NCBI GenBank assembly: GCA_038207085.1
Contig: JBBRAE010000031.1
Coordinates: 1-31,973, forward strand
Direction: 5' to 3'
Origin: Armatimonadota bacterium
Lineage (GTDB): Bacteria; Armatimonadota; UBA5829; DTLH01
Length of the DNA stretch: 31,973 bases
In this document: one piece after another, positions 6,822-31,973 of the stretch
Numbering within the stretch: position 1 is the stretch's first letter
Layout: each line of letters starts with the position of its first letter
Made by a program: the position numbers and the translations under genes
The notes under the pieces: generated by a model
What the model was told of the DNA's origin: nothing
Database searches by the model: none
Seen by the model: only the letters and a program-made list of their open reading frames with translations

Positions 6822-7296
6822 ACCTGATCACGCAGGTTCCGTCGCCCGCGCAGAGCCGTTTCTCCAGTTTGAAGCTGATCTCTCCCGCAAATTCGTTTGT
6901 CCATCCCTCGAACTCGGCTGTGCAGATCTTCTCTGAGATCGAGTTTGCGATCGCCTCGCGCCCGGCGTGCGAAAGCATTGCATACCACGGGCACCGGCGG
7001 ACGACTATTTCGAGCGCGTCTTCCGAGGGCCAGCGCACCTCGTAGTCGAACCCCTCGGCTGCGAACTTCAGCCCAAAGCATGCCGCGAGGTCCCTCAGGC
7101 TGTTTCCTTCAAGGCCGAGCAACTGCTTTGCCTTGCGTGCCTGGATCTTGGGCATCACGGTCCACACCTGTTCATCAAGCTCAAGCGCCTCTTCAAACGA
7201 GCGTTTCTCCTCGGTCTTGACGAACCACAGCCCGTCCACCGTGAAGTACGACCTTCTCAGGAACTCGACAAGGGTAGCATCGTCGAACTTGTCCAC
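6784..7296 (-). CDS. DUF6125 / V4R-like (L-2-amino-thiazoline-4-carboxylate hydrolase-like) protein
   Basis: 'TVDGLWF..TE', 'RCPW', 'IC..EF', 'LC.GD..C..RF' cysteine pattern; directly follows DAHP synthase. Confidence 0.65.
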   Translation of the reverse strand: MDKFDDATLVEFLRRSYFTVDGLWFVKTEEKRSFEEALELDEQVWTVMPKIQARKAKQLLGLEGNSLRDLAACFGLKFAAEGFDYEVRWPSEDALEIVVRRCPWYAMLSHAGREAIANSISEKICTAEFEGWTNEFAGEISFKLEKRLCAGDGTCVIRFKEELRKTSETE

Positions 7297-7299
7297 AGG

Positions 7300-8322
7300 C
7301 TACATCCTTTTCCCGTGACAGAGCGAGGGCACGGTTTCCATAATCGCCTCAAGCGTGTCGAGCGCAAGGGCCTGGGGGCCATCGCAGAGCGCGTGGGTCG
7401 GGTCCGGGTGAACTTCGATCAAGAGCCCGTCGGCTCCTGCCGCCGCCGCCGCGTAAGATAGCGCCGGGACGAAGCTTCGGCTCCCTGCTGCGTGGCTTGG
7501 GTCGACGATCACCGGCAGGTGCGAAAGCGACTTTGCAACCGGGATGGCTGAAATATCGAGCGTATATCGTGTATAGGTCTTGTCGACGGGATGCACCCCA
7601 CGCTCGCAGAGTATCACCCTGGAGTTCCCTTGGCTAAGGATATACTCGGCCGCGAGAAGCCACTCGTCGATAGTTGCGCTCGGGCCGCGCTTCAGCATGA
7701 CCGGCACATCGAGCTTGCCGACGGCGGTGAGGAGCGCATAGTTCTGCATATTGCGCGCGCCGATCTGTAAAATGTCGGCATATTCGGCGATGAGGTCGGC
7801 GTCGTGGTGGTCCATAATCTCGGTGACGGTGACAAGGCCGAACCTGTCGCCCGCTTCTTTGAGATACTTGAGCCCCTCGGCGCCGAGCCCCTGAAAGGCG
7901 TAGGGCGAGGTTCTGGGCTTGAATGCGCCGCCCCGCAGCAGTTTCGCCCCGCAGAGCTTGACCGCGCCCGCGATGCCCATAAGCTGCTCGCGGCTTTCGA
8001 TCGCGCAGGGGCCAGCCGCCACGGTGAAAGTCGGCGCACCGATAGTCACCCCTTTGATCTCAACAACGCTGTCGACGGGGTGGAACTCGCGGCTTGCGAG
8101 CTTGAAGGCCCGGCTGACCTGGGTTACATGATCGACCCCCGAGAGCAGTTGGAGCTGTTCGGTAAGGGGACCTCTAAGATCAGGCGGAATCGCGCTTGCG
8201 ACCCCGACGGCGGTCCGTTCGCCTCCGGGAAGGCTGACGGCTTTCAGGCCATGCTCTTCAATAACGCCGACGACCTGTCTGAGTTCCACTTCGGAGGCTC
8301 CGCTCCGCATTGCCACTATCAT
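7300..8322 (-). CDS. aroF: 3-deoxy-7-phosphoheptulonate (DAHP) synthase, type I-beta with N-terminal regulatory domain
   Basis: [53 protein letters not shown] motifs. Confidence 0.93.
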
Positions 8323-8893: not shown

Positions 8894-9673
8894 CTAGCGA
8901 CTGTCCGCTGGCAGCCTATCGTAAATAATCTCGCAGGGCGGGTCGGAGAGCAGGCTTGGCATTACCTGGTTTACGAGGTCGGCGACCTCTTCGTCCACGT
9001 GACCGATCGAGACGATCAGCGTTTGGGGTTTGAGCAGTGTCATAACCCTTTGCACGCCCTCTGCGACCGAACGGACGCGCTCTACGTGGCGCACGAAGTT
9101 GATTTTGCAGGATTTGGACACCCGCTCGGCGTCATCGAGCTTGCGGCGCGCGAGGGATTCTGCCTCAGGAATAGGGCTTGCAAGCGGCATGCTCCTTGGC
9201 ACGCGCAAAAGGTCGATCGCGTGGACCTCGTTTTTGCGTCTATCGGCGACGCTGCATGCGAGCTCCATAGCCCGTTCCCAGTTTCCGACAAGCAGCACCG
9301 CGATGTCGCTCAGGCGCTGGTCGCCGGGGTGGGTGGAGAGGTCTTCAAGCCCAAGGCTCGCCCGCGCGGACTCAACGGTAGGGGCGACCGGGAGCTGCGA
9401 CGCAACGGCGCGCACCCCTCGGATCACCTTCATAGCGTTCTCAGGCACCCCCGCGACGATGATCCTCGCGTCGTGGCGCTGAATATACTTTATCGCCTCA
9501 AGAAAGGTCTTTGCTCCCTGCTCGGTGACCTCGGTCAGCTGCCCGCAGTCGATGATTATCCCCTTGGGATTCTCTTCGAGGAGCACCTTGGCGGCCGCCT
9601 GGATCGTCGGCCACTCATTTTCGTTGAGTGACCCCCTGAGCGTTACAACGTCTCGTCTTGCCTCAACTATCAT
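8894..9673 (-). CDS. STAS domain + universal-stress-protein-like domain fusion
   Basis: N-terminal 'VVTLRGSL...IIIDCGQLTEVTEQG' (STAS-like); C-terminal 'AMELACSVA...VHAIDLLRVPRSMPL...ERVRSVAEGV...PPCEI' (USP-like). Start abuts the stop of the transporter (TAAATG). Confidence 0.7.
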   Translation of the reverse strand: MIVEARRDVVTLRGSLNENEWPTIQAAAKVLLEENPKGIIIDCGQLTEVTEQGAKTFLEAIKYIQRHDARIIVAGVPENAMKVIRGVRAVASQLPVAPTVESARASLGLEDLSTHPGDQRLSDIAVLLVGNWERAMELACSVADRRKNEVHAIDLLRVPRSMPLASPIPEAESLARRKLDDAERVSKSCKINFVRHVERVRSVAEGVQRVMTLLKPQTLIVSIGHVDEEVADLVNQVMPSLLSDPPCEIIYDRLPADSR

Positions 9674-11503
9674 TTATTTCTCCAGGTAGTATCTAATATT
9701 TGCGACCACGATGTCCCGTCTAAAGAGCAACGCGTATTTGAGTTGGAGCCCCGACTGACCGTGGAGGATTTGGTGCCACCATTTCGCCGGAACAAACTCC
9801 GGCAGGACCACCGTCACGATGTGTCGCGCCCGTTCCTCTTTGACCTCATTGAGGTATTTCATAATCGGCTGAATGACCGACCTGTAGGGGGATTCGAGAA
9901 TAACAAGCGGAATCCCCTGGCCATATTTCTCCCACCGCTCGGTAACAAGCGGGGTAGACTCGGCCTCTGTTTCAATATATACCCCCCGGCAGTCCGGTGA
10001 CAAGCTTTTTGCGTACTGCAGCGCGGGAAGAATGCCGTTGTGTATCCCTGAGACAAGCACTATAACCGTGTTTCTCATCTCAGGAAGCTCGATCGTATCT
10101 TGATCAAGCGGCAGCCTGAGCTGCTCTGCCATCTGCATATAGTGCTGGTTGATCTTCCTGAACATAATCACCAGCAGCAATATCAGCACGACGACGATGC
10201 CGGCTCCACCCCAGAACTTGGTGTAGGCTTGAATTATTGTCACGATACCGGTCAGGATAGAGCCAACGAGGCTGACGAGCCATCCCAGCCCTTTTTCTTT
10301 CAGGCGCCTGCTCCGCACGAACATGCCGGCCTGTGACAGGGTGAACGCCAGAAATACTCCAACCGCGTAGAGCGGGATCAGCTTGGAGACCTCCGCCTTG
10401 AATGCTATTACCAGGACAGCCGCCATAAGTGAAAGCACGATGATTCCGTTTGAGAACACCAGCCGGTCACCGATATTGCCGAACTGTCTGGGCATAAATC
10501 TGTCGCGGGACAGGAAGTAGGAAAGCCTCGGGAAGTCGGCAAAGCTTGTGTTGGCGGCAAGGACGAGGATAGCCATAGTCGCGCCCTGAATCGTGAAGTA
10601 GAACCAGGTCCGCCCGAATATACCTCGCGCGACCATCGAGACGACAGTCTCATGCCCGCCGGTGTGTTCGCTCGGCACGACTCCCATATGGAACGCCAGC
10701 CAGGAGATCCCTATGAACAGCACGCTCAGGATGGTCCCCATCAGAACGAGCGTCGTCGCGGCGTTCTTTGCCTCAGGAGGCTTGAAAGCGGCGACTCCGT
10801 CGGCGACGGCTTCGGTTCCGGTCATCGCGGTACAACCACTGGCAAATGCCCGAAGAATCAAAACCAGTCCAAGTGCGTGGGTAGTTTCTACGATGGGCGT
10901 CGGTGCAGCAGGTAGGCTTCCCGACAGGGCTCTGGTCACTCCCACCCCGATCATCACCACAAAGCTTATGATAAAGAGATAGGTCGGGATCGCAAACAGC
11001 GCGCCCGACTCTTTCACTCCACGCAGGTTTGCAAGCGCGATCATAGCGATGAACATAACCGCAAGCAGAACCTTCTCAGGCGCAAGGTCAGGGAAGGCCG
11101 ATATGATAGCCGCAACACCTGCTGAGATACTTACAGCGACGGTAAGCGTATAGTCGATCAAAATCGACGCAGCGGCAATAAGGCCCCAACCGACTCCGAG
11201 GTTGTCCTTGGAGACAATATAGGTTCCTCCGCCTCTTGGGTATGCCTGGATAGTGCGCCTGTAGGAGGTGATTACCATCCACAAAAGCCCGATGACCACA
11301 AGCGATATCGGCACAGAGAGCCTGAGCGCATACCCACCCGCCGCGACAAGCACCACAAGGATTTCCTGAGTGGCGTAAGCGACTGAGGACATAGCGTCAG
11401 AGGCAAAAACGGGCAGCGCCAGGATCTTGGGGAGTCGTTCATGTGCCGCTCGCCAAGTAGGCAGCGGCTTACCAAACAGAAATCGTCTTACTGAAAAAGC
11501 CAT
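9674..11503 (-). CDS. APC-superfamily permease, KimA/YdaO-like K+ transporter
   Basis: 'LPVFASDAMSSVAYA', 'YPRGGGTY', 'DYTLTVAVS', 'FASGCTAMTGTEAV', 'LIPLYAVGVF', cytoplasmic 'ESPYRS...PEFV..KWWH..LH.Q'. Confidence 0.88.
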   Translation of the reverse strand: MAFSVRRFLFGKPLPTWRAAHERLPKILALPVFASDAMSSVAYATQEILVVLVAAGGYALRLSVPISLVVIGLLWMVITSYRRTIQAYPRGGGTYIVSKDNLGVGWGLIAAASILIDYTLTVAVSISAGVAAIISAFPDLAPEKVLLAVMFIAMIALANLRGVKESGALFAIPTYLFIISFVVMIGVGVTRALSGSLPAAPTPIVETTHALGLVLILRAFASGCTAMTGTEAVADGVAAFKPPEAKNAATTLVLMGTILSVLFIGISWLAFHMGVVPSEHTGGHETVVSMVARGIFGRTWFYFTIQGATMAILVLAANTSFADFPRLSYFLSRDRFMPRQFGNIGDRLVFSNGIIVLSLMAAVLVIAFKAEVSKLIPLYAVGVFLAFTLSQAGMFVRSRRLKEKGLGWLVSLVGSILTGIVTIIQAYTKFWGGAGIVVVLILLLVIMFRKINQHYMQMAEQLRLPLDQDTIELPEMRNTVIVLVSGIHNGILPALQYAKSLSPDCRGVYIETEAESTPLVTERWEKYGQGIPLVILESPYRSVIQPIMKYLNEVKEERARHIVTVVLPEFVPAKWWHQILHGQSGLQLKYALLFRRDIVVANIRYYLEK

Positions 11504-17743: not shown

Positions 17744-18589
17744 CTACTTAGCCGCCTCAAGCGTGCAAATCGCCCCCGGGCGCTTGATCCGTAGCGCGAC
17801 GCTCTCCATCACCCGGAACGGATGGTTCAGGTTCGCCGGGCCGAGGTACCCCGTCACGTAGTCCTGGGCGATGGCGATATCGAGGTTCTGCACGCCGGTC
17901 GAGACGACCACGCCGTAGTCGGCTATCGCAGGCGACTGATAGACCCCAGCCGTCGCGACGTCACGGATATGGTTGATCTCAAGGACTCCCGTGTTTGCGT
18001 ACACCCGGTGCATCTGGGCGAAGCGTCTCGGACTCACGGCGACGGCGTACGGCCCGTAGAACCCACCCGCGACGAGCTTTTGGATCGCCGCGACCACGTC
18101 CTCAAACGCCCCGCCTGCCTCGTCCCAGTTGTGGGCTTCGACCTTGTTGCGTCCGGTCGCGGTGAGGAGCCCCTGGAACCCGAGCGCGGGGTCGCCGTTG
18201 AAGATGATATCGTCTTCTTTTTGTGCGACGAACGCCGACGCGGCTGCCGCTGCGGCCACATCGAGCGGAAGCCCAATCCTGCGGCTTGACTCGATATCGC
18301 GCCAGAAGACGATGAAGTCCTTGTAGATCAAAGGCAGGTTCTGGTGACGGCGATCGAGCGGCTGGACAACGTTTTCGTCGCCCCTGCCGAGCATATCCAC
18401 CGCCGCCTCTTCGATCCCACTGAAAGTATCGAATATTACGTCCTGAAGCCCCGCTCCAAGCGGGCCAAACACGCTTATGAAGCGTCGTCCTACAAGCTGT
18501 CTCGTCGCAGCCTGGACCACAATGTTGTCTATCGCAGCCCACTCGGAGTCGGTGAGCGGAGCATCGCCCCGTGCTAGCAGATCGATCAT
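17744..18589 (-). CDS. Family 1 encapsulin nanocompartment shell protein (Linocin M18-like)
   Basis: 'MIDLLARGDAPLT..EW..ID', 'GRRFI...GPLG.G', 'WRDIE', 'EDDIIFNG', 'GFYGPY', 'DIAIAQD', 'ES.ALRIKRP.AI'. GGAGG SD supports ATG 18589 rather than 18739. Confidence 0.9.
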   Translation of the reverse strand: MIDLLARGDAPLTDSEWAAIDNIVVQAATRQLVGRRFISVFGPLGAGLQDVIFDTFSGIEEAAVDMLGRGDENVVQPLDRRHQNLPLIYKDFIVFWRDIESSRRIGLPLDVAAAAAASAFVAQKEDDIIFNGDPALGFQGLLTATGRNKVEAHNWDEAGGAFEDVVAAIQKLVAGGFYGPYAVAVSPRRFAQMHRVYANTGVLEINHIRDVATAGVYQSPAIADYGVVVSTGVQNLDIAIAQDYVTGYLGPANLNHPFRVMESVALRIKRPGAICTLEAAK

Positions 18590-18618
18590 AGTGGATCCTC
18601 CAAAGTGTTCATACTGAC

Positions 18619-18648
18619 AAAAAAGGTGCCCGCCGAAACTCGGCGGGC
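18619..18648 (-). terminator. Intrinsic terminator just upstream of the encapsulin start
   Basis: On - strand GCCCGCCGA-GTT-TCGGCGGGC-ACC-TTTTTT. Confidence 0.7.
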
Positions 18649-18844
18649 TAACAGGGATGCTACCACAACACTTGAAAGGAGAAGAAGATGTTCGGTAAAG
18701 ATAGAAGCTTCGCGTTAGCTTGGCTACTGTCTTCACCACTAGCTATGTTCCCCAGTAATAATACCTGCAAACCACTTGGCAACAAATATTTTGTACATAG
18801 ATCAGGTTATACACAATAGTGACACGTAATGGTAGGGGTACGTC

Positions 18845-19664: not shown

Positions 19665-21809
19665 ATGCTGGACACTCAAACCATACTATTTGGCAGCGAC
19701 CCTCTCGAAGGGATCATGGCTGTGGAGCCTGCCGGGGACCGGGTGGCGATCTACCGGCGCGTCGACGGTGGAGTTGTGCGCGAAGATCGGGAGTTCACTC
19801 CCTGGCTCGTCGCGGCAGAGAAGCTCGACCTGCTGTCGGCCCGATGGACGGAGCTTGAGGGCGACGGCTACTACAGACAGCTTGCGACCTTCCCCAACTG
19901 GAACGCGGCCCGGGCGGCGCGCTTCAAGCTTCGGGATGAACACGCGAGCGCGATAGCCTACCCGAGCGCGGTCAAGCAGTATCTGACGATGTCCGGGCAG
20001 ACTATGTTCAAAGGTATGGGCTACGCAGACGTTCACAGGCTGCAGCTCGACATCGAGACGCTGGGGCTTTCTCCCGACCCGCCGGAGAACGCAATATTTC
20101 TCATCGCCATCTCCGACAACCGAGGCTTTGAGACTGTGCTTGAAGGCACTGAAAGAGATATGCTCACGCGGATGGTCGAGATCTTGCGCGAGCTTGACCC
20201 GGATGTGATCGAGGGGCACAACATCATCGGCTTCGACCTGCCCTACATTGCCAAACGCGCGGCGATGTGTGGGGTGAGAGTCGGCATCGGGCGCGATGGG
20301 TCGGAGATGACGGTCGGCTACGAGCAGAACACAAGCATCGGAGCGATCAGCCGCAGCCTTACTCCTTACCACGTGCATGGGCGGCATATCATCGACACCC
20401 TGATCGGGGTGCAGCGCTACGACATCTCCCGCGGGGTGCTCTCCAGCTACGGCTTGAAAGAGTGCGCGCGGGTGTTTGGCATCGCATGTGAGGGGCGCAT
20501 CGAGATTCCACACGAGAAGATCGCCGAGGTATGGGGGCGGGACCCGGAGAGGGTCAAGACCTACGCGCTCCAGGACGTGATCGAGACTCGCAGGCTCTCT
20601 GAGCTTGTGAGCCCGGCTGAGTTCTTCCTCACTGAGATGATCCCCGACAGCTACTCCAGCGTCGCGACTACCGGGACCGGCGAGAAGATCAACAGCATCC
20701 TCTTGCGCGAGTATCTGCGGCAGGGGAGAGCTATCCCGCGTCCGCAGCTTCCCCGCGAGGTGCCGGGAGGCTACACAGAGGTGCGGATGACGGGGCTTAT
20801 CAACCGCGTCGTGAAGTGCGACGTTGAGAGCCTCTACCCGAGCCTTATGATTACCCACTGCATCGCGCCGGCATCCGACAAACTTGGGATATTTATCCCC
20901 GCGCTCTATGAGCTCACGCGCAGGCGGATCGATGCCAAGGGACGGGCGAAAGCGTCGGCGGGGCAGGAGCGGGCTTATTGGGACGGGCTGCAGAGCTCGT
21001 TCAAGACCCTCATCAACAGCTTCTACGGCTACCTTGGAGCGGTGACCTTTAACTTCAACGACTATGACGCCGCCGAGCGCATCACCACCGAGGGGCAGGC
21101 GACGGTCAAGAGGATCGCCGAGGAGCTTGTGGCTACAGGTAGCGGCGTGATTGAGATCGACACGGACGGCGTCTATTTCCAGCCGCCGGAGGGCGTCGAC
21201 GGGGAGGAGTCCGAGACCCGCTACATCGAGGAGATCGGGCGCGTGCTCCCTGCGGGGATCAGGCTTGCGCATGACGGGCGCTACCAGGCGATGCTCTCGC
21301 TCAAGGTCAAGAATTACGTGCTCGTCGGCTATAGGGGCGAGCGGGTGTTCAGGGGCGCGTCGATGCGTTCGCGGGCTGATGAGCTCTTTGGGCGCGAGTT
21401 TATCGCTCGTGCGGTCGACCTCTTGGTCGAGGGCAAACCGGGCGAGGTCGCGGAGCTTTATCGGCAGATCGCAGGCGACATCGAGGCCAAGCGGCTGCCA
21501 CTTCTCAAGTTTGTGCGGCGTGAGAGGATCACGGAAAAGACCTTCACATCCGCCGCCCGCCGCAGGCTCGCTGAAGCGGCGCGTGGGGCGTCGGTGGGCG
21601 AGTATATCAGCGTTTATCAGCGCGCTGACGGCTCGATCGGGCGCGCGGAGAACTACGCGAACGACGAGGATACGCGCTACCTGCTGGACAAGCTCTATAA
21701 GTTTGCGAGCAGGCTCCGGGAGGCGTTTGGGAGCGAGTTTGACGCGCTCTTCCCGAAGCCATCGGCCAAGACCAAGGCAGAGGCGGCCGGGCAGCAGACG
21801 CTGTTCTGA
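19665..21809 (+). CDS. polB: Family B DNA polymerase with 3'-5' exonuclease
   Basis: ExoI LDIET, ExoII HNIIGFDLPY, ExoIII YALQD; pol motifs DVESLYPS, KTLINSFYGY, IDTDG, KNY. Confidence 0.9.
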   Translation: MLDTQTILFGSDPLEGIMAVEPAGDRVAIYRRVDGGVVREDREFTPWLVAAEKLDLLSARWTELEGDGYYRQLATFPNWNAARAARFKLRDEHASAIAYPSAVKQYLTMSGQTMFKGMGYADVHRLQLDIETLGLSPDPPENAIFLIAISDNRGFETVLEGTERDMLTRMVEILRELDPDVIEGHNIIGFDLPYIAKRAAMCGVRVGIGRDGSEMTVGYEQNTSIGAISRSLTPYHVHGRHIIDTLIGVQRYDISRGVLSSYGLKECARVFGIACEGRIEIPHEKIAEVWGRDPERVKTYALQDVIETRRLSELVSPAEFFLTEMIPDSYSSVATTGTGEKINSILLREYLRQGRAIPRPQLPREVPGGYTEVRMTGLINRVVKCDVESLYPSLMITHCIAPASDKLGIFIPALYELTRRRIDAKGRAKASAGQERAYWDGLQSSFKTLINSFYGYLGAVTFNFNDYDAAERITTEGQATVKRIAEELVATGSGVIEIDTDGVYFQPPEGVDGEESETRYIEEIGRVLPAGIRLAHDGRYQAMLSLKVKNYVLVGYRGERVFRGASMRSRADELFGREFIARAVDLLVEGKPGEVAELYRQIAGDIEAKRLPLLKFVRRERITEKTFTSAARRRLAEAARGASVGEYISVYQRADGSIGRAENYANDEDTRYLLDKLYKFASRLREAFGSEFDALFPKPSAKTKAEAAGQQTLF

Positions 21810-22587
21810 TAGAGCGGTAATTTCGGGGTTCTGGTGAAACGATTTCGTGCTCGCTTTGAGCTTGGGGGGATTTCGTTTTGTCGGTTTTTGTATGGTGGGC
21901 TCATTTGTTTCCTGAACCACTGAGGTGATGAATGTTTTGAGGGCACTGAATGTCTTCACTTGGTGATGTCTCCTTTCTGGTGAGTTAGCTGTGGTGCTGG
22001 GTGTATAGCCTCTGGATGGCTTCGGGGTTGGTATGGAGTGCGGCATCTTGATGCCGCTTTGTTTTTCGGCTGCAGACTGCTTCTTCGGGCGTCAGGGTAT
22101 GGCTGTCGCCCGAAAGCAAGGCGCCGTCGAGACGACGCACTCCGAAAAGTATTCTCCCATATTATAAGACTAACTGCCAGGTTAATCAGTCATTTCAACG
22201 CAAGCTGACGCCACATCTCTGCCAAAGGTCTATCAGCCTCCCAACTCACCATACTCAGCAAGACGACTCCCGCATATCCATTCCGGTGTTGATCCCTCTC
22301 GTAGCTGGGACAGACTCGATTTGCTATAACAGGTTGACTGCCGTACATGCTATAATATGGCCGAGATACTCGCGTTCTCTTTGAGGGTCAATCCGTGAAC
22401 GAAGCCGATACCTGCAGAATCCACATAACGCCCGCACTCCATAGCGCCGGAGTGGGATACCATCATTCGAACTTCACCGAGGACTACGAGGTGAACTCGA
22501 AGCGTCTAATGGCCAAGTGATGCAGCATCATGCACAAACATCCGTGAGAATGGTAGCGGGCTATCGCACACTTCAGGAGGGTTTCTG

Positions 22588-24351
22588 ATGTCTTCAGCAC
22601 GTTTCAGAGTCGATCCGCGTCTTGCGACGCTTCTGGGTGAGAGCTATCGATCTACCGAACGAGCTCTTAAGGAGTTGGTAGACAACGCCTGGGATGCCGA
22701 TGCGCAGAACGTCTGGATCGAGCTACCGGACATTGTATCGGATCAGCCTATAGTTATCCGCGACGACGGCAGCGGCATGACCGAGCAGGAAATCCATCAG
22801 GAGTACCTCGCTGTCGCGAGCGATAGACGCACGCGCAAAGGCACGACGACCGTTATAAAGAAGCGCACCGTCAAGGGTCGCAGGGGCATCGGGAAGTTTG
22901 CCGGCCTGGTGGCGGCGAGCACGATGACTGTCGAAACGAAAGTGAAAGGCGTCATAACCTCGCTCACAATGGCGAAATCCGCTATCCTTGAAGTAGCCAA
23001 AGACCTGGAGGAGGTCGATCTGCCGGTTCAGATTTCGGCCTGCGGCAGCGACGAACATGGAACGACAATCACACTCAGCGACCTCAATCAGAACCTCGAA
23101 GCGCCTAAGCCCGATGTCCTAAAGGAATTGCTCGCTCTCGAATACGGTCGAGATCGTGATTTTACCATTTTCGTGAATGGCGAGCAGTTGGGTTTCCAGG
23201 ACATCCCAGGCGAGGCTTTCTCGTACAATGACGAACTGCCGGGAGTTGGTAAAGTAAATCTGCAGTTCAAGGTTATGGAGAGCGGCAGACCGCTGGCAAA
23301 GGCTGGCATAGTGACCCGCGTTGATGGCAAGATAGTCGGTAAGCCGAGTTTCTTCGGTCTGGACGAGCGAGATGATTTTCCCAAGAAGTTGCTCCACAGG
23401 ATAAGCGGAGAAATAGCCGCCGACGGCCTCGAAGGCGACGTGACAGCAGACTGGGGAGCGATCATTGAGAACAGCAAGGCGCGACAGGCAGTGCAAGAAT
23501 GGGCTCAGGAGCACCTGAATCGAGATGTAGAAGTTGTCTTTGAGCGCGAGATCAAGACCGCACAGGCTCAACTGAACCGCCAGATTCGGGAACGTCTGAG
23601 GCAGCTACCTGAGTACAGACGCCAGTTCGCTCAAGAAGCGCTGGACAGGGTAATGCGAAAGTTCTCCGACTTGCCAATTGAGAAAAGGAATATCCTGGCG
23701 TCACTCGTACTCGATGCTATGGAGAAAGATGAGTATTTCCAGGTATGTCAGAGGATCTACGCTGCCCGCGACGGTGACATCTCCAACTTGGCCGACGCGC
23801 TCAACTCATTCGGCTTGGTGGCTATGACCACAATGGCATACTCCGCTCACTCTAGAATAGTATTGCTGAACGGTCTCGACAATTTGGCACTTAATCCGGC
23901 TACTCTCGAAATGGAGATGCACAAAGCCCTCGAATCCAACCTGTGGGTTCTCGGCCCGGAATACTCGCTGATGGCCTCCAATCAGACTCTCAAGAAGACC
24001 ATTGAGCAATTTTCCGACAAGAAGTTCTCTGGTGCGAGGGCCAACAAACGGCCCGATCTGCTCCTGGCACAGGATATGCCCGATCGCATGCTGTTGGTCG
24101 AGTTCAAGAAACCGTCAGACTCCCTGACCCGTGACCACGAAAGCCAAGCCAAGAAATACAGGGACGATCTGCAAACGAAGTTCCCTGGCAAGAAGATCGA
24201 CATAGTGCTCATCGGCGGCCAGAAAAGCGCCGGTATCACACACGTTGACGGCGACACTCGGTTTTCTTCGTACAAAGAAGTCATCTCCAACGCCCGTAAT
24301 CAGATGGAGTGGCTGCTCCGGGAGTTGCTGAGCGTCAACCAGAACGACTAA
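22588..24351 (+). CDS. GHKL (HATPase_c_3 / MORC-like) ATPase fused to a C-terminal PD-(D/E)XK nuclease-like domain
   Basis: ALKELVDNAWDADA, IRDDGSGM, GRRGIGK, HGTTITL; C-terminal E..MH..L..NLW...RPDLLL...LLVEFKKP...QAKKY. AGGAGG SD. Confidence 0.82.
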   Translation: MSSARFRVDPRLATLLGESYRSTERALKELVDNAWDADAQNVWIELPDIVSDQPIVIRDDGSGMTEQEIHQEYLAVASDRRTRKGTTTVIKKRTVKGRRGIGKFAGLVAASTMTVETKVKGVITSLTMAKSAILEVAKDLEEVDLPVQISACGSDEHGTTITLSDLNQNLEAPKPDVLKELLALEYGRDRDFTIFVNGEQLGFQDIPGEAFSYNDELPGVGKVNLQFKVMESGRPLAKAGIVTRVDGKIVGKPSFFGLDERDDFPKKLLHRISGEIAADGLEGDVTADWGAIIENSKARQAVQEWAQEHLNRDVEVVFEREIKTAQAQLNRQIRERLRQLPEYRRQFAQEALDRVMRKFSDLPIEKRNILASLVLDAMEKDEYFQVCQRIYAARDGDISNLADALNSFGLVAMTTMAYSAHSRIVLLNGLDNLALNPATLEMEMHKALESNLWVLGPEYSLMASNQTLKKTIEQFSDKKFSGARANKRPDLLLAQDMPDRMLLVEFKKPSDSLTRDHESQAKKYRDDLQTKFPGKKIDIVLIGGQKSAGITHVDGDTRFSSYKEVISNARNQMEWLLRELLSVNQND

Positions 24352-24360
24352 CAGCAACCT

Positions 24361-25083
24361 TCAGCGCAGCGCACCGTCATCCTTGAACGCCATGTTGTGC
24401 GCTATGCCAAGGTTCCAGTATATCTGCCCGAACAGATCTCGGGCAAGACGGCTGGTGTTCTCCTCGAACAGGTCGGGCAATCCTGCTTCAGCAGCTACCT
24501 GAACAAAGGGTGTGTGAACAGGTGCCCAGTCGTGGCGATTGGCATAGTCCAATCGGCAGCCCTTTATGCCGCCGAGTGTCAGGATTGCCCGGAACTGGCT
24601 ACCGGCCGCAATGTCGCAGAACAGAACAGCCAGCACCCTCAGTTGCTGCAATATCTTCCTCGCCAGATATTGATGAGGCAGTATCTCCGCTGGTTGCTCG
24701 ATCCGACGCACCCATCCAAAGTCAATCCGGCCAGATTGTCGCAGTTTGACATACTCCTCGCGGATTCCATCATGGGTATACTCGGTGGTCGCTCCGTAGT
24801 CGGTCGGCTTGGCGCTATTTCCGAAGTGCTGGTTCAGATGCTGAATGCACGCCATTTTCGACAAGGAAAGAGGCTCCGTCGGAATCAGTGCGACGTTCAT
24901 CAGAACCGTGTCGGTAGGATGGTCATACAAACCATCGGATACGATTGGCAAGTCTGTGTCCCTAGCGAGCAGCACTTTGCTGCTCCCTTCCTCGACGACC
25001 GTACCGACAGCGTTCCAGAACTGCTGCCCCAGATCGTTCAGTAGTTCCATGTTCAGACCAACCAGCTTGTATTCAACTGCCAT
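24361..25083 (-). CDS. Hypothetical protein, probably co-transcribed with the DUF4062 gene
   Basis: 240-aa ORF, GAGGAG SD, starts ~30 bp after the DUF4062 stop, globular composition. Confidence 0.65.
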   Translation of the reverse strand: MAVEYKLVGLNMELLNDLGQQFWNAVGTVVEEGSSKVLLARDTDLPIVSDGLYDHPTDTVLMNVALIPTEPLSLSKMACIQHLNQHFGNSAKPTDYGATTEYTHDGIREEYVKLRQSGRIDFGWVRRIEQPAEILPHQYLARKILQQLRVLAVLFCDIAAGSQFRAILTLGGIKGCRLDYANRHDWAPVHTPFVQVAAEAGLPDLFEENTSRLARDLFGQIYWNLGIAHNMAFKDDGALR

Positions 25084-25114: not shown

Positions 25115-26182
25115 TTATTCTTCCGGCCTGCGTTCATTGCGGAAACGACGACGAAAAAGCTCCACCATATCTTCCGCCACTGCTGCCCAGTCGGCGGGTG
25201 ACGCTGGCATATCGCGTTGCTCTGGTGAACCGGGCACGATCACTGGCGTAGACCCATCACCGGGAAACATATGTCCCGTGTGTTGCTCACCTGAAGGGCG
25301 CGGGCCGAACATTCTGTGTCCCATATTGAGCAGTCCCGCCGTCACATACACCGTCCCAGCATATCCATATACAGTCTGATATGTGTCAGCAGAAAACGCC
25401 GCTAACCTCGTCAGGATATCCCTGACATCCTCCTGGTCAACCAAGAAGAGGTTGCCCATATCAAGGTGAGACTTCCTCTCATGCCTCAGGACCTTGGCGG
25501 AGACCAATAATCCACCACAGGTGGCAATCACGAGAGACTGCGGTTGTCGTCCTCCGTTGGACTGAAAGAGACGCAGACTATCCTCGTCAACAGCCTCATC
25601 AAGGCCAAGTTTTCGGTCGAAGAAGCCATGCTTGCCATAGGTCAAGCTCTGCGCCATTGTGCGCTTCATGTCTTCATCGCCAACTTGCTTGGTGCTGAGT
25701 CGAACGCCTGTGTTTGTAGGCAGACAGGACAGCACTACGGTCGTATCGTCACCCGACCACGTTCGATCACTGAAGATGGCCTGGAATTCCGCCGATGCAT
25801 CGGTAGCACGTCTCATTTGAGAACCCGCCTCCTTCTGATACCGGCTAAGCGCCTTTACGATCTCATCTTTCAGTTCCTCAGGGTTGCCAAACGAGCCTCT
25901 GAATAGACCGTTCCCATAATCTTCGACCTTCTTGACGAAATCCTGTTGGCGTTTCTCCTTACTCTCAGTAGAAACGAATGCAAACCGAGGTTTGCAGCGC
26001 CGGACAGCCTCATCATACTCCTGCTCCGTTACCGATATTCCATCTGGAGTTATCCAGCCATATCGCGGCCCGAGTATGAGTATGTAGACTTCGCTACTGG
26101 CGACTTCCGAAAGGCAGGCTTGCTCTGGGGTGTGGGGTCGTGCGCCGAAATCCTCGGCCATGATAGGAGTGTGGTGCAGAAT
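25115..26182 (-). pseudogene. DUF4062-domain protein, N-terminally truncated
   Basis: 'HTPIMAEDFGARP..PEQACL.EV..SEVYILILG.RYG...SVTEQEY.EA' is DUF4062-like, but the usual leading xFISS strand is missing: in-frame TGA TGA at 26192-26197. May still be translated from ATG 26161. Confidence 0.7.
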
Positions 26183-26184
26183 AT

Positions 26185-26858
26185 GAACCCCTCATCATTC
26201 AGGAACCTGGAGACTTTCGTGTGCGTGTACCCTTGTAGCCTTAGGTCAACCAGTCGGCGCATCGTCTCCGCATGCTCGTTTAGCACATAGCTATCGTCGT
26301 TTCTTGTGAGCCAGAACACCGGCTGGGCATGGAGTTTCCCATTCTTCACGGCAGCGAGCGCCGCCGCGCTTACCCATTCGGAGATATTTTCCGATTCCAT
26401 CTCCGCAACGGCAAGGAGGATGGTCGTCATCAGCTTCCCAGACGGAGTGCTGGTATCTATCTTCTGCTTTATGCAATGGACGCTGCAATCGGTCTTCCCG
26501 AACTCCTCGAAGAGATGCAGTCCCTCCTGGACGTTACGCGCGAACCTCGACATTTTAAAGAAGATAATGGAGTCGTAGTCGCCACTTCTGGCTTCCTCAA
26601 GAAGGGCACCCAACCTGGCCGCTTTTGCCACTTGAGGCGCGAGGCGGACTTGTCGATGTCAACGTGCCTGAGTGATGCCTCTTCGTCAAGCTGGTAACCC
26701 TTCATGTGCAGCCGCACATAGTCCCTGGCGGCGTCGAGCTGTATCTCTGGTGAGAGGAAATCTCCGTTCCCCTCACCTTTGCCTCTTACTCCCTGGTGGC
26801 TGACCCTGATGTAGCATCGGGCCACCCTTGTTGTCTCTGTGTCTGTGCTCTTCCGCAT
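26185..26858 (-). pseudogene. Large serine recombinase, frameshifted and C-terminally truncated
   Basis: YIRVS catalytic motif, 'SPEIQ', 'KRPG' in one frame; continues 'LGALLEEARSG...KMSRFARN...IDTSTPSGKLM..ILLAVAEMESENISE' in another (1-nt loss at ~26612). Homology stops at 'FLNDEGF' ~26185. Confidence 0.85.
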
Positions 26859-26962
26859 GTTTTATTCTTTCTCTCCAATTCTTCTCGAAACGTTGTATAA
26901 GGCTCGATAACTACATGAACTCGATGTTCACTAACTAACACTTTGAGAGGAAATAGAAGAAA

Positions 26963-27160
26963 ATGACAAAAGAAGAATCCTGCACAGAACGAGCCGACGT
27001 AATCGCCGCTATCCTGTCGGCCAACTCCCTGATTGATGAAGCCCAAGCGACCGAGGTCTACAATATCCTCGATGCCGCCAGAATACTCCTGGCCATCCCG
27101 AGAGGCCAGCGAATAGTCGTCAGCAAGTCTGATTACCCGCAAGGGCCATCGGGCCATTAG
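26963..27160 (+). CDS. Small hypothetical protein (65 aa)
   Basis: GAGAGG SD-like sequence upstream of ATG; amphipathic helical-looking sequence; divergent from the left recombinase. Confidence 0.4.
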   Translation: MTKEESCTERADVIAAILSANSLIDEAQATEVYNILDAARILLAIPRGQRIVVSKSDYPQGPSGH

Positions 27161-27778
27161 ACCCGCGTCCCCATAGACACTCACCTGGGCAGAGGGCTTC
27201 CTGACCCCAACCCAGGTGAGCGACGGCACCGGCCCGAGAGGGCCGTGATACATTTCACTGGATATATGTAATCTGGAACCCGCATTCATCTGTGTCAATT
27301 CTGTGATGTCGCCGCTTCCGCTTGGCATCAGTTCGTTTTGCATAGTCTTCGTCCTCATCCCTTTCTCTCTGTGAACCCAACCGTAGTTTCAATGTTGTTA
27401 TTGTTCGGCTTTGGGTTTATCTGCATCGGCCCCGAAAGATTTGTCTGATCTTTCGGAGGGCAGCGAGGGGACGGCCTGAGCCGGGCGCAGCCCATGGAGC
27501 GGTTCGCCCCTCTCGGTACCTGATAAGAAGGGCAATGGAGCAACCGACCCGCGCTTTTCGGCGCGGGTCGGTTGCTGGACGAGCGGTAGATTATCTACCG
27601 CCTTGGATGAGCTTGCGCTGAAGAAGAGTTGCCTGTAAGATGAGGATGTGCAACGGGCGGAGAAATCCGCCCCAAGGCCCTACTGGGCCATGTTCAAGGC
27701 TGGCGCAATAGCGCCACCGACCTGAAGGTTGCCCCTGCCAGGGCAGCCTTCAGTCCATCTCTACAGGAACTACTTTCA
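27130..27778 (+). ncRNA. Candidate large structured non-coding RNA
   Basis: About a dozen stems, three GNRA tetraloops (GCAA 27139, GAGA 27236, GAAA 27662), G-U wobbles compatible with the + strand, and a long-range helix 27623-27642 / 27756-27776 closing four hairpins. Confidence 0.6.
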
Positions 27779-29005
27779 TCTCGCTCCCCTCCTCAAGGCC
27801 CGTCTCTCCTCGCCTGGGGTAAGGGGAATGCCGAGCATGTTCTTCAGTTTCGTGACGGCGGTCTCGACAGCCGCACGCTGCGCGCTCATCCTGCCGCTGA
27901 TTACGACGCTGCCCTGCCAGATATCGGCATCCCGCGTCCAGTCCACATCGCGCGCAAGCGCCTCTATCAGCCTCTCCCGCTCGGAGCTGGGGTAGTTCCT
28001 GATGTAATATCCCATCCTCCCGATGACGGTCAGGCCCGTTCCGGTGCAGTGAACGAACCTGTGCCGAAGGAGATTGGTGTCCACGGTGCCAAGAGCGGGG
28101 TCACCGGCCCCGAGTATCTGCGACCATTCAGAGTTGGATAAACTGAAGAAGTTGAAGAAATCCACGACGTATTTCATGTGCTCATCAACCGCCTCGCTGC
28201 TCCCAAGCATCTTCGTCATGTCCTTCTTGAGGGACACGGTGGCCTGGGCGGAGTCGCCCGTAAGTATCTCTGCCACCGCGATCCTAAGCTGGTTCAAGGT
28301 GAAGAGGTTGATGCTCGATTTCCCCACGCTTTTCGAGACCTGCTCGACCCTACCACGGAATACCTCGACCTCCCGCTCCACCGCACGGACGAGCCTCGCG
28401 AGCATGTCCCTGTGGTCGTAGGCCGTAAGCAGGCTCTGGGGAACGGGCCGCGATTGCGCGCAGTCATAGAACAACTGATGGATAATCTCCATATCACCTT
28501 CAATCACGATGGTGACGCCGATCCCGTCGCCGCCGAGTGCTTCCTTCTGCATCAGGGCGTTTCGTATTCCCTGCACTCTATGCTGGCCGTCTGTTATGTT
28601 GTAGACGACCGATGTCGGTAAGACCACAACCCCGAGCTTCACCGTCGATGAGGTTTTCGGCACATGGCAGTGAATCGGCTCTTGCAGGCAGAGTGAGAGC
28701 GGCGGCAGCACATAATCATCCTGACTCGTGAGGTAGGCGGTGATGGCCCGATGATGCTCGGGAAGGAGCGGGCGGTTGTAGTGCTCGTGCGCGTCCCCTC
28801 CGCGTGCGAGGTTATCGATCCGCACTCTCTCGGCGATGTACCGGAGCGGGAATGCCGTCGTCATATAGCTCCTCTTGCCTTGACCGTATAGGATAGCCGG
28901 AGCAATGGTTGCCATACTGGTAGCGGCTTCCTCGGCGGCGGCTCTGAATGTGTCTTCATAGGTCTGGTGCTCGACCTGAACTAGGGCCGGGCTTTGCTGT
29001 TCCAT
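27776..29005 (-). CDS. DGQHR-domain protein, DndB family (ParB/sulfiredoxin-like fold)
   Basis: 'NRPL...H..AI..YL....DYVLPPL', 'ITDGQHR..GI..AL', 'QLF.D', 'YDHRD', 'LFTL'. GGAGG SD supports ATG 29005 rather than 29137. Confidence 0.85.
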   Translation of the reverse strand: MEQQSPALVQVEHQTYEDTFRAAAEEAATSMATIAPAILYGQGKRSYMTTAFPLRYIAERVRIDNLARGGDAHEHYNRPLLPEHHRAITAYLTSQDDYVLPPLSLCLQEPIHCHVPKTSSTVKLGVVVLPTSVVYNITDGQHRVQGIRNALMQKEALGGDGIGVTIVIEGDMEIIHQLFYDCAQSRPVPQSLLTAYDHRDMLARLVRAVEREVEVFRGRVEQVSKSVGKSSINLFTLNQLRIAVAEILTGDSAQATVSLKKDMTKMLGSSEAVDEHMKYVVDFFNFFSLSNSEWSQILGAGDPALGTVDTNLLRHRFVHCTGTGLTVIGRMGYYIRNYPSSERERLIEALARDVDWTRDADIWQGSVVISGRMSAQRAAVETAVTKLKNMLGIPLTPGEERRALRRGAR

Positions 29006-29152
29006 TTTCTTGATCCTCCAAGTTACAGTTTCTGGTCTTTCGTCGTTTCGTGCCGGGGACGAGTTATAGGCTCTTTTCTCTCTTCTATCACCTCCCTGAG
29101 GGATGAGAGCCTGATGGGTGAACTGCAACCCCAGCATTACTCGACTGATCTC

Positions 29153-29181
29153 AGAGTAGATCGATTATTTGGCGAAGTCAA
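29153..29181 (-). promoter_or_regulatory. Sigma-70-type promoter for the DGQHR gene
   Basis: TTGACT (29181-29176), 17-bp spacer, TACTCT (29158-29153) on the - strand. Confidence 0.55.
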
Positions 29182-29523
29182 GTCAATTTAGTGTTTTCGA
29201 TCAAGAATTCATTAAGATGGCGTCGATGTGATGACAACGCGATCAAAATATAAGGACTTCTTGCAGGTGTGCCTTCCAGAAACCCTTAAGATACCTAATG
29301 ATGAGCCAGGCTGAGGCGACCAGTCGTCGAAAATGGGCCAAATTCACGGAGAGGAGTAGGCATAGACATGTATCGGCACGGACGAGTAGCCAGCAAACAG
29401 CCTAAATTTGAGCTCAAAATGAGAGTATGCCACGATGATGTTGTTTCGACGCGTACATGACTTGCAAGGCGTTTAGAACACACCATCATCGGGAAGACTC
29501 TTCACGGAAAAGGAGAAAGCACT

Positions 29524-31393
29524 ATGATAGAGACAATGACAGAGACATGGGAGACTGGCGGTCCACCGGGGCTGCGCCAGAAAGACCCGAAGTTTGCGAA
29601 GGTAGCGATCCAGGCCCGCAAGAGCAACAAAACGGAGGGGCGCAGTAAGAGTTTGCGGGGAGCAGGAGGAGTTCTGCAAGAAGGTATGCCAGTACTACGG
29701 GTTTGACCCGGACAACATAAGCATATACGAGGAAGATGAAGGCTATAAAGGGGAGTGGTATTGGCAGGATGCCGAAAGCCGCAATCCGAAGCCCTGGAGG
29801 CCAGTGCTCACCCAACTGGTGAACGACATATTGGCTGAAAAGATAGATGTAGTCGTGGTATGGCGCTCAGACCGCATCGTTCGAGACAGCGGCGTGTGCG
29901 ACTCTCTGATGAAGCTCTTCAGGGCGAAGGGCACTCGTTTCATCTGCGGTAACAGAGATATGGACATAACCTCTGCTACCGGCCTCTACCAGGCGATGGT
30001 AGAGGCTGCCAACAACAGGCGGTATCGCGACCAGACGAGCGAAGACATTATGCGAGACCATGACTTCAAAGCGGCTCTGGGCATGTTCAGTCGCAATCCG
30101 AGCTGCCTTGGTTACCGAAGTAAGGGCAAAGGCAGCCAGGCAGTAGAGGTCATACCTGAAGAGATAGAGTTGGTCAACAGAATATTCAGGCTCTTCGTCC
30201 AGGGAGAGGGCGAAGAAGGCCCCCTCGGCATCAATGCCATCTGTCGGAAGCTTATGGACGAGGGGACGAAGCTAGCTCGCGGTGCGAAGGGGCATATTCC
30301 AAAGCACGAGAACAAAGTCCACACTTCTCAAATACGGACGATACTCAGCAATTGCATGTACATCGGCAGATGGCGGCACAGGGGCAAAGAATACGAGTGC
30401 GACCTGGTGCTTGTTCCTTCCTCCGACGGCACAGATAAGTGGCAGACCGCTGTGCCGGTCGCACTGTATGAAGCTGCGCAGGAGAAGCTCAGGCTTTCAG
30501 ACCGACCAGGGAAGAGGTCTCTTACGAGCGAGCACCTGCTGACGGGCCTGATGGTCTGTGCGCGATGCGGCAGGCCGCTTCAAGTCAACTACAGGCAGTA
30601 TAAGGACAAGGACGGCAATGAGACACGGCCACCGCGTCGGACTTACCTCTGCACCAACTCCAGGCCCCCTGGCTACTGTAAGAAGTGGGGGATGAAGCTC
30701 GTTCAGGAGCCTGTCCTTGATGAGTGGGTGATACAGGAGCTTGCTCCGCTTCTTGAGGCCGAGATACGGGAGATGAGAACCGCATCGGGCAGGGACGCGG
30801 ATGTGCAGACCCTCGCCGAGCTTGAGAGAAAGCTGAAGGAAGCTCGGGAGAAAGAGGGGCCAGCACTTGCTGAGTGTATCAGGACAATGGACAAGGAGCA
30901 GATCGAGATGGTCGCGAAACACCTTCGGGGCGAGCGCGAGCATCTTCAGCGTCGCGCCGAGGAAATCCGAGCCAGGTTCGCCATGCAGGAGACGGTAGCG
31001 CCAGACCTTTCTGCCGCCGACCTTGCAGGAATGCCGAAGGGGGCGGTGAAAGACGCGCTCCGGCGCGCGATCCAGTGGATAGCGGTCGGGAGCGAGGGAG
31101 TGACTGTGCTAACTTCCTGGGGAACCTACATAGGGGCAACATTCCAGGAAATCCCCAAGAGAACGTATTTCAGACCCGACACTCGGCGGGGCATAAACCC
31201 GCCATCACCAGCCGCCTGTCTGCGATGCCCAACATGGCTGCCATCGCCAGAGGACTTTATCAAGGGACGGCGCGACAGTATGGGCAAGAGGGCGGTCGTC
31301 CTTTCCGATAATAAGATATTGCCCGACCCTGCCCAGACGAACGGCGAACCAGTCCAAGATGTGGAGTTATCCATAGAGGTCATAGACCTGTAA
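29524..31393 (+). pseudogene. Large serine recombinase (resolvase + recombinase + Zn ribbon + coiled coil) with one frameshift
   Basis: AAAGGAG SD; 'KVAIQARKS...SKSLR' then, after an extra G in GGGG 29657-29660, 'EQEEFCK...RPVL..LV..I....IDVVVVWRSDRIVRD', 'LGY', 'ILSNCMYIG', 'LLTGLMVCARCG...YLC'. Repaired length ~622 aa. Confidence 0.88.
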
Positions 31394-31426: not shown

Positions 31427-31714
31427 GTGAAAAGACAGAGCGCACAAACAACGGCCACAGGCCGGTGCGAAACAGCGGCAGGCGAGGCGGAAACATCCTC
31501 GCTTCCGCTGTCACCGGAAGAGCTTGAGGAAATCCGAGCGGCATATCGAGACGGGTGCAGTGGCGAGATAGTCATTGGGATGCGCGGGGAGGAGCGAGTG
31601 ATAACCATGCTTGTTCCCGCACCGGGCTCATGTGACCTCGCGAAGAAGCTGGTGGGACTTGGCTGTGACCGATTCATCAGAGTTCAAAAAGCAGTTAGAC
31701 GTGGTCGCGATTAG
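31427..31714 (+). CDS. Small hypothetical protein downstream of the recombinase
   Basis: AAAGGAGA SD before GTG 31427; 95 aa; starts ~30 bp after the recombinase stop. Confidence 0.55.
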   Translation: MKRQSAQTTATGRCETAAGEAETSSLPLSPEELEEIRAAYRDGCSGEIVIGMRGEERVITMLVPAPGSCDLAKKLVGLGCDRFIRVQKAVRRGRD

Positions 31715-31973
31715 ACGAGCATATTGTCGGACAATCGCCCCGAAAGGGTTCTGTCAGGACTGGTGGGAATTTCGGCGACTTGACGTGTTTGTGCAAATTG
31801 GTTCACTGCTTACGCCGCCACTTTTACCATGCGTCTGGCGTCAGCAGCCATGCAACCCATAAATAGTTGTTGGAATACAATGACAGATTGTAGAAAGTGT
31901 TCTCGGCCTTGAGCCAGTGATATGTTCTCCTTCATGACCGTTCGTTTGCGGAACAATTGACGGATTTCGTCGA

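Follow-up and report, generated by a model that had tools for sequence, protein, structure and literature searches.

A conserved cassette of two outward-facing large serine recombinases, a DndB-like DGQHR gene and a predicted antisense RNA in Armatimonadota

The 31,973-nt contig of an Armatimonadota bacterium analysed here (the window) carries near its right end one copy of a family of genetic elements that is real and conserved and apparently undescribed, in which two genes for large serine recombinases (LSR1 and LSR2), each with a small partner gene (small1 and small2), lie on either side of a structured spacer and a gene for a DndB-like DGQHR protein. On present evidence this family is a variant of LSR-based mobile elements and not a new category. 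We lean towards reading it as a transposon-like integrative element of ~6.3 kb and five genes, with relaxed targeting, two LSR/small-protein arms, and a control core made up of the DGQHR protein and an RNA. A sequence-only reading of the window had proposed the order LSR1, small open reading frame (ORF), structured region, DGQHR gene, LSR2, small ORF, and all of these parts were found where it had placed them:

26185..26858, minus strand: LSR1 remnant that keeps the catalytic domain and the first part of the recombinase domain (PF00239, E=1e-19)
26963..27160, plus strand: small1, 65 aa, partner gene of the close LSR1 clade (22 homologues; nonsynonymous divergence, dN, below synonymous divergence, dS)
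27539..27576, no strand: perfect central hairpin of 16 bp, which likely terminates transcription between two back-to-back promoters (homologues have a strong hairpin of another sequence at this position)
27613..27641, plus strand: sigma70-type promoter (TTGC.., 17 nt, TA...T) directed toward the DGQHR 3' end (7 of 7 DGQHR+LSR2 loci)
27647..27765, plus strand: predicted small RNA, with hairpin 27655-27672, a window-specific insert of ~43 nt, hairpin 27722-27753 and a pyrimidine-rich tail (model R1, covariation)
27776..29005, minus strand: DGQHR protein (DndB-like, probable ParB fold), 409 aa, intact (PF14072, E=1e-66, 225 bits)
29153..29181, minus strand: conserved sigma70-type promoter for DGQHR (7 of 7 DGQHR+LSR2 loci, 160-179 nt upstream of the start)
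29232-29237, no strand: conserved box TGACAA in the divergent spacer (alignment of 8 spacers)
29262-29269, no strand: conserved box TGCAGGTG in the same spacer (same alignment)
29407-29418, no strand: palindrome TTTGAGCTCAAA in the same spacer (same alignment)
29524..31393, plus strand: LSR2, full-length large serine recombinase (Resolvase, Recombinase and Zn-ribbon domains)
31427..31714, plus strand: small2, 95 aa, partner gene of the LSR2 clade (dN < dS; 45 relatives at 50% clustering)

Homologues of the DGQHR protein at 44% or more were taken as close and those at 40% or less as distant; with the window and one fragment (L012) included, the close group comprises 11 loci. An LSR gene lies within 3.5 kb of DGQHR at 9 of these 11 loci; the 9-kb contig of L017 holds no LSR, and at L012, where only half of the gene remains, a different LSR at a distance of 2 kb was left out of the count. 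In contrast, none of the 52 distant loci, many of them on short contigs, gave a profile match to LSR1, LSR2, small1 or small2, with one weak tblastn match 7 kb away at L053; Pfam assignments for 63 of the 152 neighbouring ORFs at 16 longer distant loci comprised methylases, nucleases and one tyrosine integrase, and no resolvase. At seven close loci LSR2 is divergent from DGQHR with small2 behind LSR2, and the full order of small2-LSR2 divergent from DGQHR, structured spacer, and small1 divergent from LSR1 is present in the window, L013, L016 and L046 amid unrelated flanks, while L014 matches as far as small1, where its contig ends. The co-occurrence of DGQHR, paired LSRs and the RNA motif, which the sequence-only reading had singled out as the feature to look for, was found in homologues.

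Two of these loci, L013 and L016, each contain five intact genes between unrelated flanks; the 6340-nt stretch running from small2 to ~80 nt past LSR1 is 79% identical in the two. Between them dN/dS was 0.06/0.70 for LSR1, 0.04/1.03 for DGQHR and 0.25/0.72 for small2, the corresponding values for LSR2 being 0.08/0.66 between L014 and L016, and purifying selection was shown on all five genes. Identities are mosaic: between L013 and L014 DGQHR is 96% identical and LSR2 66%, indicating that an arm was exchanged while the layout was kept, and L044 and L046 share 63% in DGQHR and 79% in LSR2. Both arms can also be followed into decayed copies. L120, a relic of 230 nt, retains the 3' half of small2 fused to the final 74 nt of LSR1, both oriented as in the element, and in G042, a complete genome from a third family, an LSR1 remnant is directly divergent from an LSR2 pseudogene and DGQHR is gone. 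Genome G031 holds seven copies or fragments over six contigs. As an indirect sign of linkage, contigs of equal size lie behind both DGQHR and LSR2 matches (74704, 149087, 6383 and 15152 nt) and behind both DGQHR and small1 matches (149087 and 9294 nt). No relaxase or replication gene was found within the core, no relative of DGQHR or LSR2 was found on viral contigs, and on plasmids only LSRs of 23-27% were found among the 10 of 71 matches listed. Fragments in G031 (L012 at ~9050-10740, L120 at ~6700-7200 and L141 at ~7360-8030) were observed to lie in or against fragments of Rhs-type genes.

The two recombinases, described by the sequence-only reading as dissimilar and pointing outward, are indeed divergently oriented, and intact LSR1 is only 20% identical to LSR2. 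In L013 each has Resolvase, Recombinase and Zn-ribbon domains and the catalytic R-x-S motif is present. LSR2 of the window is 57-67% identical to its homologues, of which those with named hosts come mostly from Armatimonadota. The window gene has one extra base near 29658 relative to 6 homologues. This base is absent from a contig of the matching sequencing run, X1 (94% of sampled words), which was used to check the window assembly, so LSR2 is probably intact in the population. small2 adjoins LSR2 in 11 of the 12 LSR2 loci examined, including those of three distant families, and is mostly co-oriented and directly behind its LSR. Its predicted fold appears to be a compact alpha/beta domain; fold searches returned no clear match (best Z 4.8), and there was no viral match at E<=0.001. 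We regard small2 as a candidate directionality or accessory factor. Genes of the LSR2 clade, with or without DGQHR, are often near another ParB-type gene (L116 7457-10644; L115 4475-5791; L044 3665-5272); these neighbours include a ParB-HTH gene between two tyrosine integrases, as assigned by Pfam, and methylases with N-termini that, on visual inspection, resemble ParB.

LSR1 of the window is 50-53% identical to the intact LSR1 of L011, L013 and L016. It starts at 26858, changes frame near 26607-26612 and ceases to match homologues near 26185, where it is joined to a 5'-truncated DUF4062 gene, so that the C-terminal ~320 aa, the zinc-ribbon and coiled-coil half, are missing. Judged from the reads, LSR1 is dead in the window's lineage because the truncation and fusion are spanned in X1, by a single 4.5-kb contig; the same run has two low-depth alleles at the frameshift. 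The break falls at almost the same codon in the window (26185-26195) and in L141 (~8030), just past an LNxEG motif and within ~15 nt, in elements from different families, and may mark a deletion hotspot or an internal recombination site. small1 is divergent from LSR1 in the window, L013, L016, L046, L011 and L141, and is found beside close LSR1 in 6 of 6 loci that retain the LSR1 5' end. Searches of Pfam, NCBIfam, PADLOC and PHROG gave no family match for small1, and a search with a homologue in the Atlas gave no usable match. Like small2, it is a candidate directionality or accessory factor. A 190-aa ORF antisense to small1 was rejected as a gene, being unconserved.

The DGQHR protein is DndB-like and probably of ParB fold, yet no DndB orthologue. 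It passed the DGQHR domain model TIGR03187 (115 against a cut-off of 59) and failed the DndB equivalog TIGR03233 (139 bits against 328), and D-G-H-R is invariant across 24 homologues. Its predicted structure (predicted local distance difference test score 79) has PadC, sulfiredoxin and KorB as top fold matches, and the best Foldseek match is ParB at E=0.028. The sequence-only reading had noted a DndB-like gene without its usual partners, and this was borne out genome-wide for dndC and dndD: dndC was not found in the window's own genome and dndD scored under its cut-off, and across four host genomes (73-100% complete) dndC was found in 0 of 4 and dndD over cut-off in 0 of 4. DndB of Salmonella represses its operon by binding promoter palindromes (PMC4507180), and a DndB-like protein that binds ATP and GTP has been reported (10.1101/2025.10.10.680097). 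A repressor role for the DGQHR protein is proposed by this analogy and not as a result, and the three conserved boxes of the divergent spacer (29232..29418) are candidate operators or recombinase sites. Elsewhere, distant DGQHR genes in L047, L050, L051, L056 and L020 are followed by a gene with an N6/N4 DNA methylase domain (in L029 one gene further), a separate conserved pair; the Coleofasciculus loci L058, L059 and L061 have two convergent DGQHR genes each; and YbjN-like genes flank more distant DGQHR copies (L015 230-4184, L011 936-1712).

The claim of a structured RNA was upheld in part: a conserved RNA signal is present, though it is short and resembles a promoter with two hairpins antisense to DGQHR rather than a 600-nt structure. 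The spacer as a whole (27161-27775) folds with z=-9.2, a signal limited to 27520-27775, where 200-nt windows reach z of about -8 versus -2.1 and -1.2 on the small1 side; 0 of 70 ORF-free windows of the host reached -6. Conserved across seven loci are TTGC, a gap-free 17-nt spacer, TA...T and a GG(C/U)GGA/UCCGCC hairpin. In the promoter and second hairpin 21 of 57 ungapped columns are invariant, compared with 1 of 75 fourfold sites of DGQHR, and shuffled sequences gave 0.1-0.5 matches to the promoter pattern per whole spacer. A generic promoter scan (9-of-12 rule) flagged neither conserved promoter. The distance from the RNA promoter to the DGQHR stop is 107-120 nt for six homologues; for the window, with its insert, it is 163 nt. 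The first hairpin keeps every pair in 6 of 6 homologues; it shows four one-sided G-U changes and lacks two-sided ones. In the second, 94% of cells are paired and there are nine two-sided changes, a value reached by 0 of 500 shuffles, with the proviso that the seven RNA sequences include three close kin and the shuffle control ignores kinship; its non-canonical cells are G-U in 9 cases versus A-C in 1, which favours the plus strand, antisense to DGQHR. Model R1, built from the six homologues with the window left out, recovers window positions 27601-27765 at E=1e-5 and a weak copy in L015 at E=0.003, and among 53 genomes of the class it matches only at these elements. These comparisons point to a predicted RNA of 70-120 nt antisense to the DGQHR 3' untranslated region.

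The RNA motif is absent from L011 and L141, as is a counterpart of the promoter from L011. For the window and five homologous sources Rfam gave no match at the gathering threshold, and ARAGORN reported nothing significant. A hammerhead-like reading of the spacer was rejected because, by eye, the core motif fails. A second conserved block with TATAAT faces small1 in L013, L014, L016, L046 and L141 and is unclear in the window and L011. In L015 a YbjN-like gene is duplicated along with the RNA motif. Run X1 skips 27673-27793 (121 nt) between 8-nt direct repeats, losing the DGQHR stop and the last RNA hairpin and keeping the RNA promoter.

In the mechanism we propose, the window carries one copy of a conserved cassette, likely of multi-target type, with its left recombinase broken; its ends would lie just beyond small2 and just beyond LSR1. 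Each LSR likely works with its own small partner, small1 and small2 acting as recombination directionality factors (RDFs); LSR2-small2 would be the older arm, and LSR1-small1 would have been recruited from ordinary stand-alone integrases. Most RDFs are 7-9 kDa with no common fold (PMC11795197), and known RDFs bind the junction of DBD2 and the coiled coil (PMC11795197, PMC12286644); small1 and small2 may be likened to RDFs, the fit being one of size and linkage only. The central DGQHR protein likely represses recombinase expression, binding the divergent-spacer boxes in a nucleotide-dependent manner if it behaves as DndB does, and the predicted antisense RNA likely tunes DGQHR, either by pairing with its 3' untranslated region or by terminating convergent transcription. 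Defence genes would have been acquired as optional cargo on either side. A bolder version, which we think rather improbable as a whole, has the two unrelated LSRs, each with its own directionality factor, splitting the work (one per element end, or integration versus excision), with a nucleotide-sensing ParB-fold switch under cis-antisense RNA timing both.

As to the ends themselves, a 7-nt direct repeat at both apparent boundaries of L013 (5334 and 11659) is a candidate crossover core, and is unmatched at the left end of L016. No partner copy of a tRNA-Pro 3' end was found within the stretches of G023 examined, nor one of tRNA-Glu on the L008 contig. An empty site sought by synteny at polB was rejected: csrA follows polB in two relatives but is mid-contig elsewhere in the window's own genome. 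The nearest LSR pairs are 87-89% identical and occupy two sites each, where the multi-targeting class is defined by one 90%-identity cluster at more than three target clusters.

Several observations weigh against the five-gene element and its control core. Of 7 close copies, 4 have a broken LSR1 (window, L046, L141 and G042). In L044 an unrelated recombinase, LSR3, whose end reads into tRNA-Glu, stands in the place of LSR1, and L045, from a complete genome, has an HTH_17 gene and no second LSR; two LSRs are therefore not obligatory. L011 has DGQHR, small1 and an intact LSR1 with no RNA motif or adjacent LSR2, its genome carrying LSR2-small2 on another contig, and L115, L116 and L117, from three other families, have LSR2-small2 without DGQHR. 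Because L013, L014 and L016 are close kin, the independent lineages number only about four or five. No attachment (att) site pair, empty site or circle junction was found in run contigs, homologous loci or the own genome. Finally, the top eight VIA-align rows for the DGQHR model, all of ParB/Srx fold, are weak (best Z 6.2, root-mean-square deviation 3.7, 98 aligned).

An unlikely but serious contender, drawing on several of these points, takes the true unit to be a ~4.6-kb core of small2-LSR2 and DGQHR-RNA that comes to lie beside the integrase ends of other islands, with LSR1-small1 one neighbour among several and the recombinases independent. The LSR3 of L044, the HTH_17 gene of L045 and an LSR3-type gene in L015 would be such neighbours, LSR1 is frequently broken, the RNA motif tracks DGQHR+LSR2 (7 of 7 loci) and is missing where noted above, and distant LSR1 relatives stand alone, 10 of 10 loci from other families lacking small1, DGQHR and LSR2. 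Against a shifting neighbour, however, LSR1 and LSR2 recur together in three families with unrelated flanks, both arms are retained in L120 and G042, and L013 and L016 are colinear over both arms with LSR1 under purifying selection. That two unrelated elements inserted back to back by chance, an outcome the sequence-only reading had tied to a lack of linkage between DGQHR genes and LSR pairs, is barely credible: the recombinases are dissimilar and each has stand-alone relatives, but the same order is found in other genera and families at other sites, and linkage to LSRs marks the close DGQHR loci, with no LSR1 or LSR2 profile match at the 52 distant ones.

The RNA rivals are partly compatible with the five-gene element. 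With comparable doubt to that attached to the smaller core, the structured stretch may be mainly terminators and promoter-proximal hairpins that insulate convergent genes, any short transcript being functionless by itself. The hairpins are simple, the last has a U-rich tail in most homologues, no Rfam family covers them, and the deletion in run X1 removes the last hairpin together with the DGQHR stop; yet a promoter with fixed 17-nt spacing lies directly upstream of them at 7 of 7 loci, the G-U pairs indicate the strand antisense to DGQHR, and in L015 the motif and a different gene are duplicated together. It is more doubtful that the convergent RNA and DGQHR serve to maintain the element as a toxin-antitoxin-like pair, although a convergent promoter with 3' untranslated overlap resembles type I loci such as txpA-RatA, and all 7 DGQHR+LSR2 loci have an intact DGQHR gene despite the decay of recombinases. 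The protein is a 409-aa DndB-like one, and characterised DndB is a repressor (PMC4507180); L011 moreover retains DGQHR without the RNA motif, and DGQHR is lost or broken in G042 and L012. Least probable of these three by far is an RNA that acts as a guide or scaffold in recombination, in the manner of the IS110 bridge RNA. The restriction of the motif to these elements would suit such a role in recombination itself, which the sequence-only reading had floated, but it went unsupported: where the RNA best matches its own element or nearby flanks, the match spans 8-11 nt and does not lie at the element ends, there is no guide-like complementarity and there are no variable loops, the RNA is missing at LSR2-small2 loci of other families, and both LSRs have the usual DNA-binding domains.

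The window is an entire contig (C31) of a host genome of 3.35 Mb in 83 contigs. Its stretch of host genes closes with a family-B DNA polymerase gene. Beyond this come a multi-copy repeat, then three genes that are likely cargo, and then the five-gene module; the contig breaks within a second multi-copy repeat at 31747, 33 nt past small2. The additional features are:

22588..24351, plus strand: likely cargo, GHKL-ATPase and PD-(D/E)XK-type nuclease, restriction-enzyme-like (NF050001 score under the curated cut-off)
24361..25083, minus strand: likely cargo, 240-aa protein without family match (family searches)
25115..26161, minus strand: likely cargo, DUF4062 gene with the first ~25-30 codons missing, fused behind the LSR1 remnant (PF13271 match begins at profile position 32)
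31747..31973, no strand: end of a multi-copy repeat, likely an insertion sequence (copies on C49, C69 and C74; junction in runs X1 and X2)

The polymerase gene (19665-21809) is kept in 3 of 5 genomes of the host's family. Further left, the translation of an ORF at 17744-18739 resembles a linocin/encapsulin shell protein. The repeat at the island's left edge (21816-22170) is non-coding and resembles a miniature inverted-repeat transposable element, with copies at several contig ends (C4, C6, C43, C76 and shorter contigs). Within the DUF4062 gene, 22 nt (26044-26065) are identical to part of the small1-side spacer of L046, which may be chance. Defence-like cargo accompanies several copies, namely the restriction-type ATPase-nuclease of the window, a type I restriction-modification system in L046, TIR/SLATT genes in L044, helicases in G042 and a DUF499 ATPase near L011. 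The notion of a two-recombinase element carrying defence genes hence stood as to one conserved element with such cargo beside several copies, but the cargo is optional, there being none in L013 or L016.

A literature search, with subscription journals and supplements lying outside it, found no report linking DGQHR with serine recombinases or showing this layout. If the analogy with DndB is sound, orphan DndB-like ParB-fold proteins would gain a concrete and testable role beyond phosphorothioation, in control of recombinase expression. The small genes offer two new candidate RDF families with strict cognate pairing, RDFs being normally hard to find, and L013/L016 represent a cargo-free natural element of 6.3 kb with all five genes intact that is small enough to be tested whole. 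Should both recombinases be needed, the cassette would add to CcrAB a second example of a two-LSR reaction, built along different lines. Its apparently relaxed targeting also makes it interesting for the design of integration tools. The reach of the family is limited in that it so far occurs in one phylum of uncultured bacteria.

Among known systems, Tn4451 with TnpX and Tn5397 with TndX are serine-recombinase transposons, and the ccrAB genes of the staphylococcal cassette chromosome (SCC, including SCCmec) lie in tandem. SCC resembles the present cassette in having two LSRs of divergent sequence on one cargo-carrying element, CcrAB mediating both excision and integration (PMC13296057). However, ccrAB is site-specific at orfX/rlmH, whereas the sites of the cassette vary and the flanks differ among all full copies; the cassette LSRs point outward around a regulator, each with a small partner, and NCBIfam CcrA/B/C models score 29-70 against cut-offs of 700-900. 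Multi-targeting LSRs (the Cp36 clade) place related recombinases at many unrelated loci with several copies per genome (PMC10083194), and the cassette LSRs are likewise at unrelated loci in multiple copies per genome. Those systems rely on a single LSR, which often carries DUF4368 (in 63% of the published clade; not obligatory), a domain absent from LSR1 and LSR2 of L013, and the portion available of PMC10083194 describes no DGQHR protein or RNA. With DndB of dndBCDE and orphan ParB-CTPase-fold proteins on mobile elements the cassette shares the DGQHR motif, PF14072, a probable ParB-type fold and conserved upstream promoter boxes, and differs in the failed equivalog cut-off, the lack of dndC or over-cut-off dndD in the four host genomes, and recombinases as neighbours. 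The short predicted convergent RNA overlapping a gene's 3' end resembles type I toxin-antitoxin loci (txpA-RatA), in which the place of a short hydrophobic peptide is here taken by a 409-aa soluble protein of probable ParB fold. XisF with XisH/XisI is a further example of an LSR with a small RDF. As in the LSR-RDF pairs SprA-SprB and A118 Int-gp44, each LSR clade is linked to a 6-11 kDa protein that belongs to no known family; unlike them, the cassette appears to have two such candidate pairs on one element.

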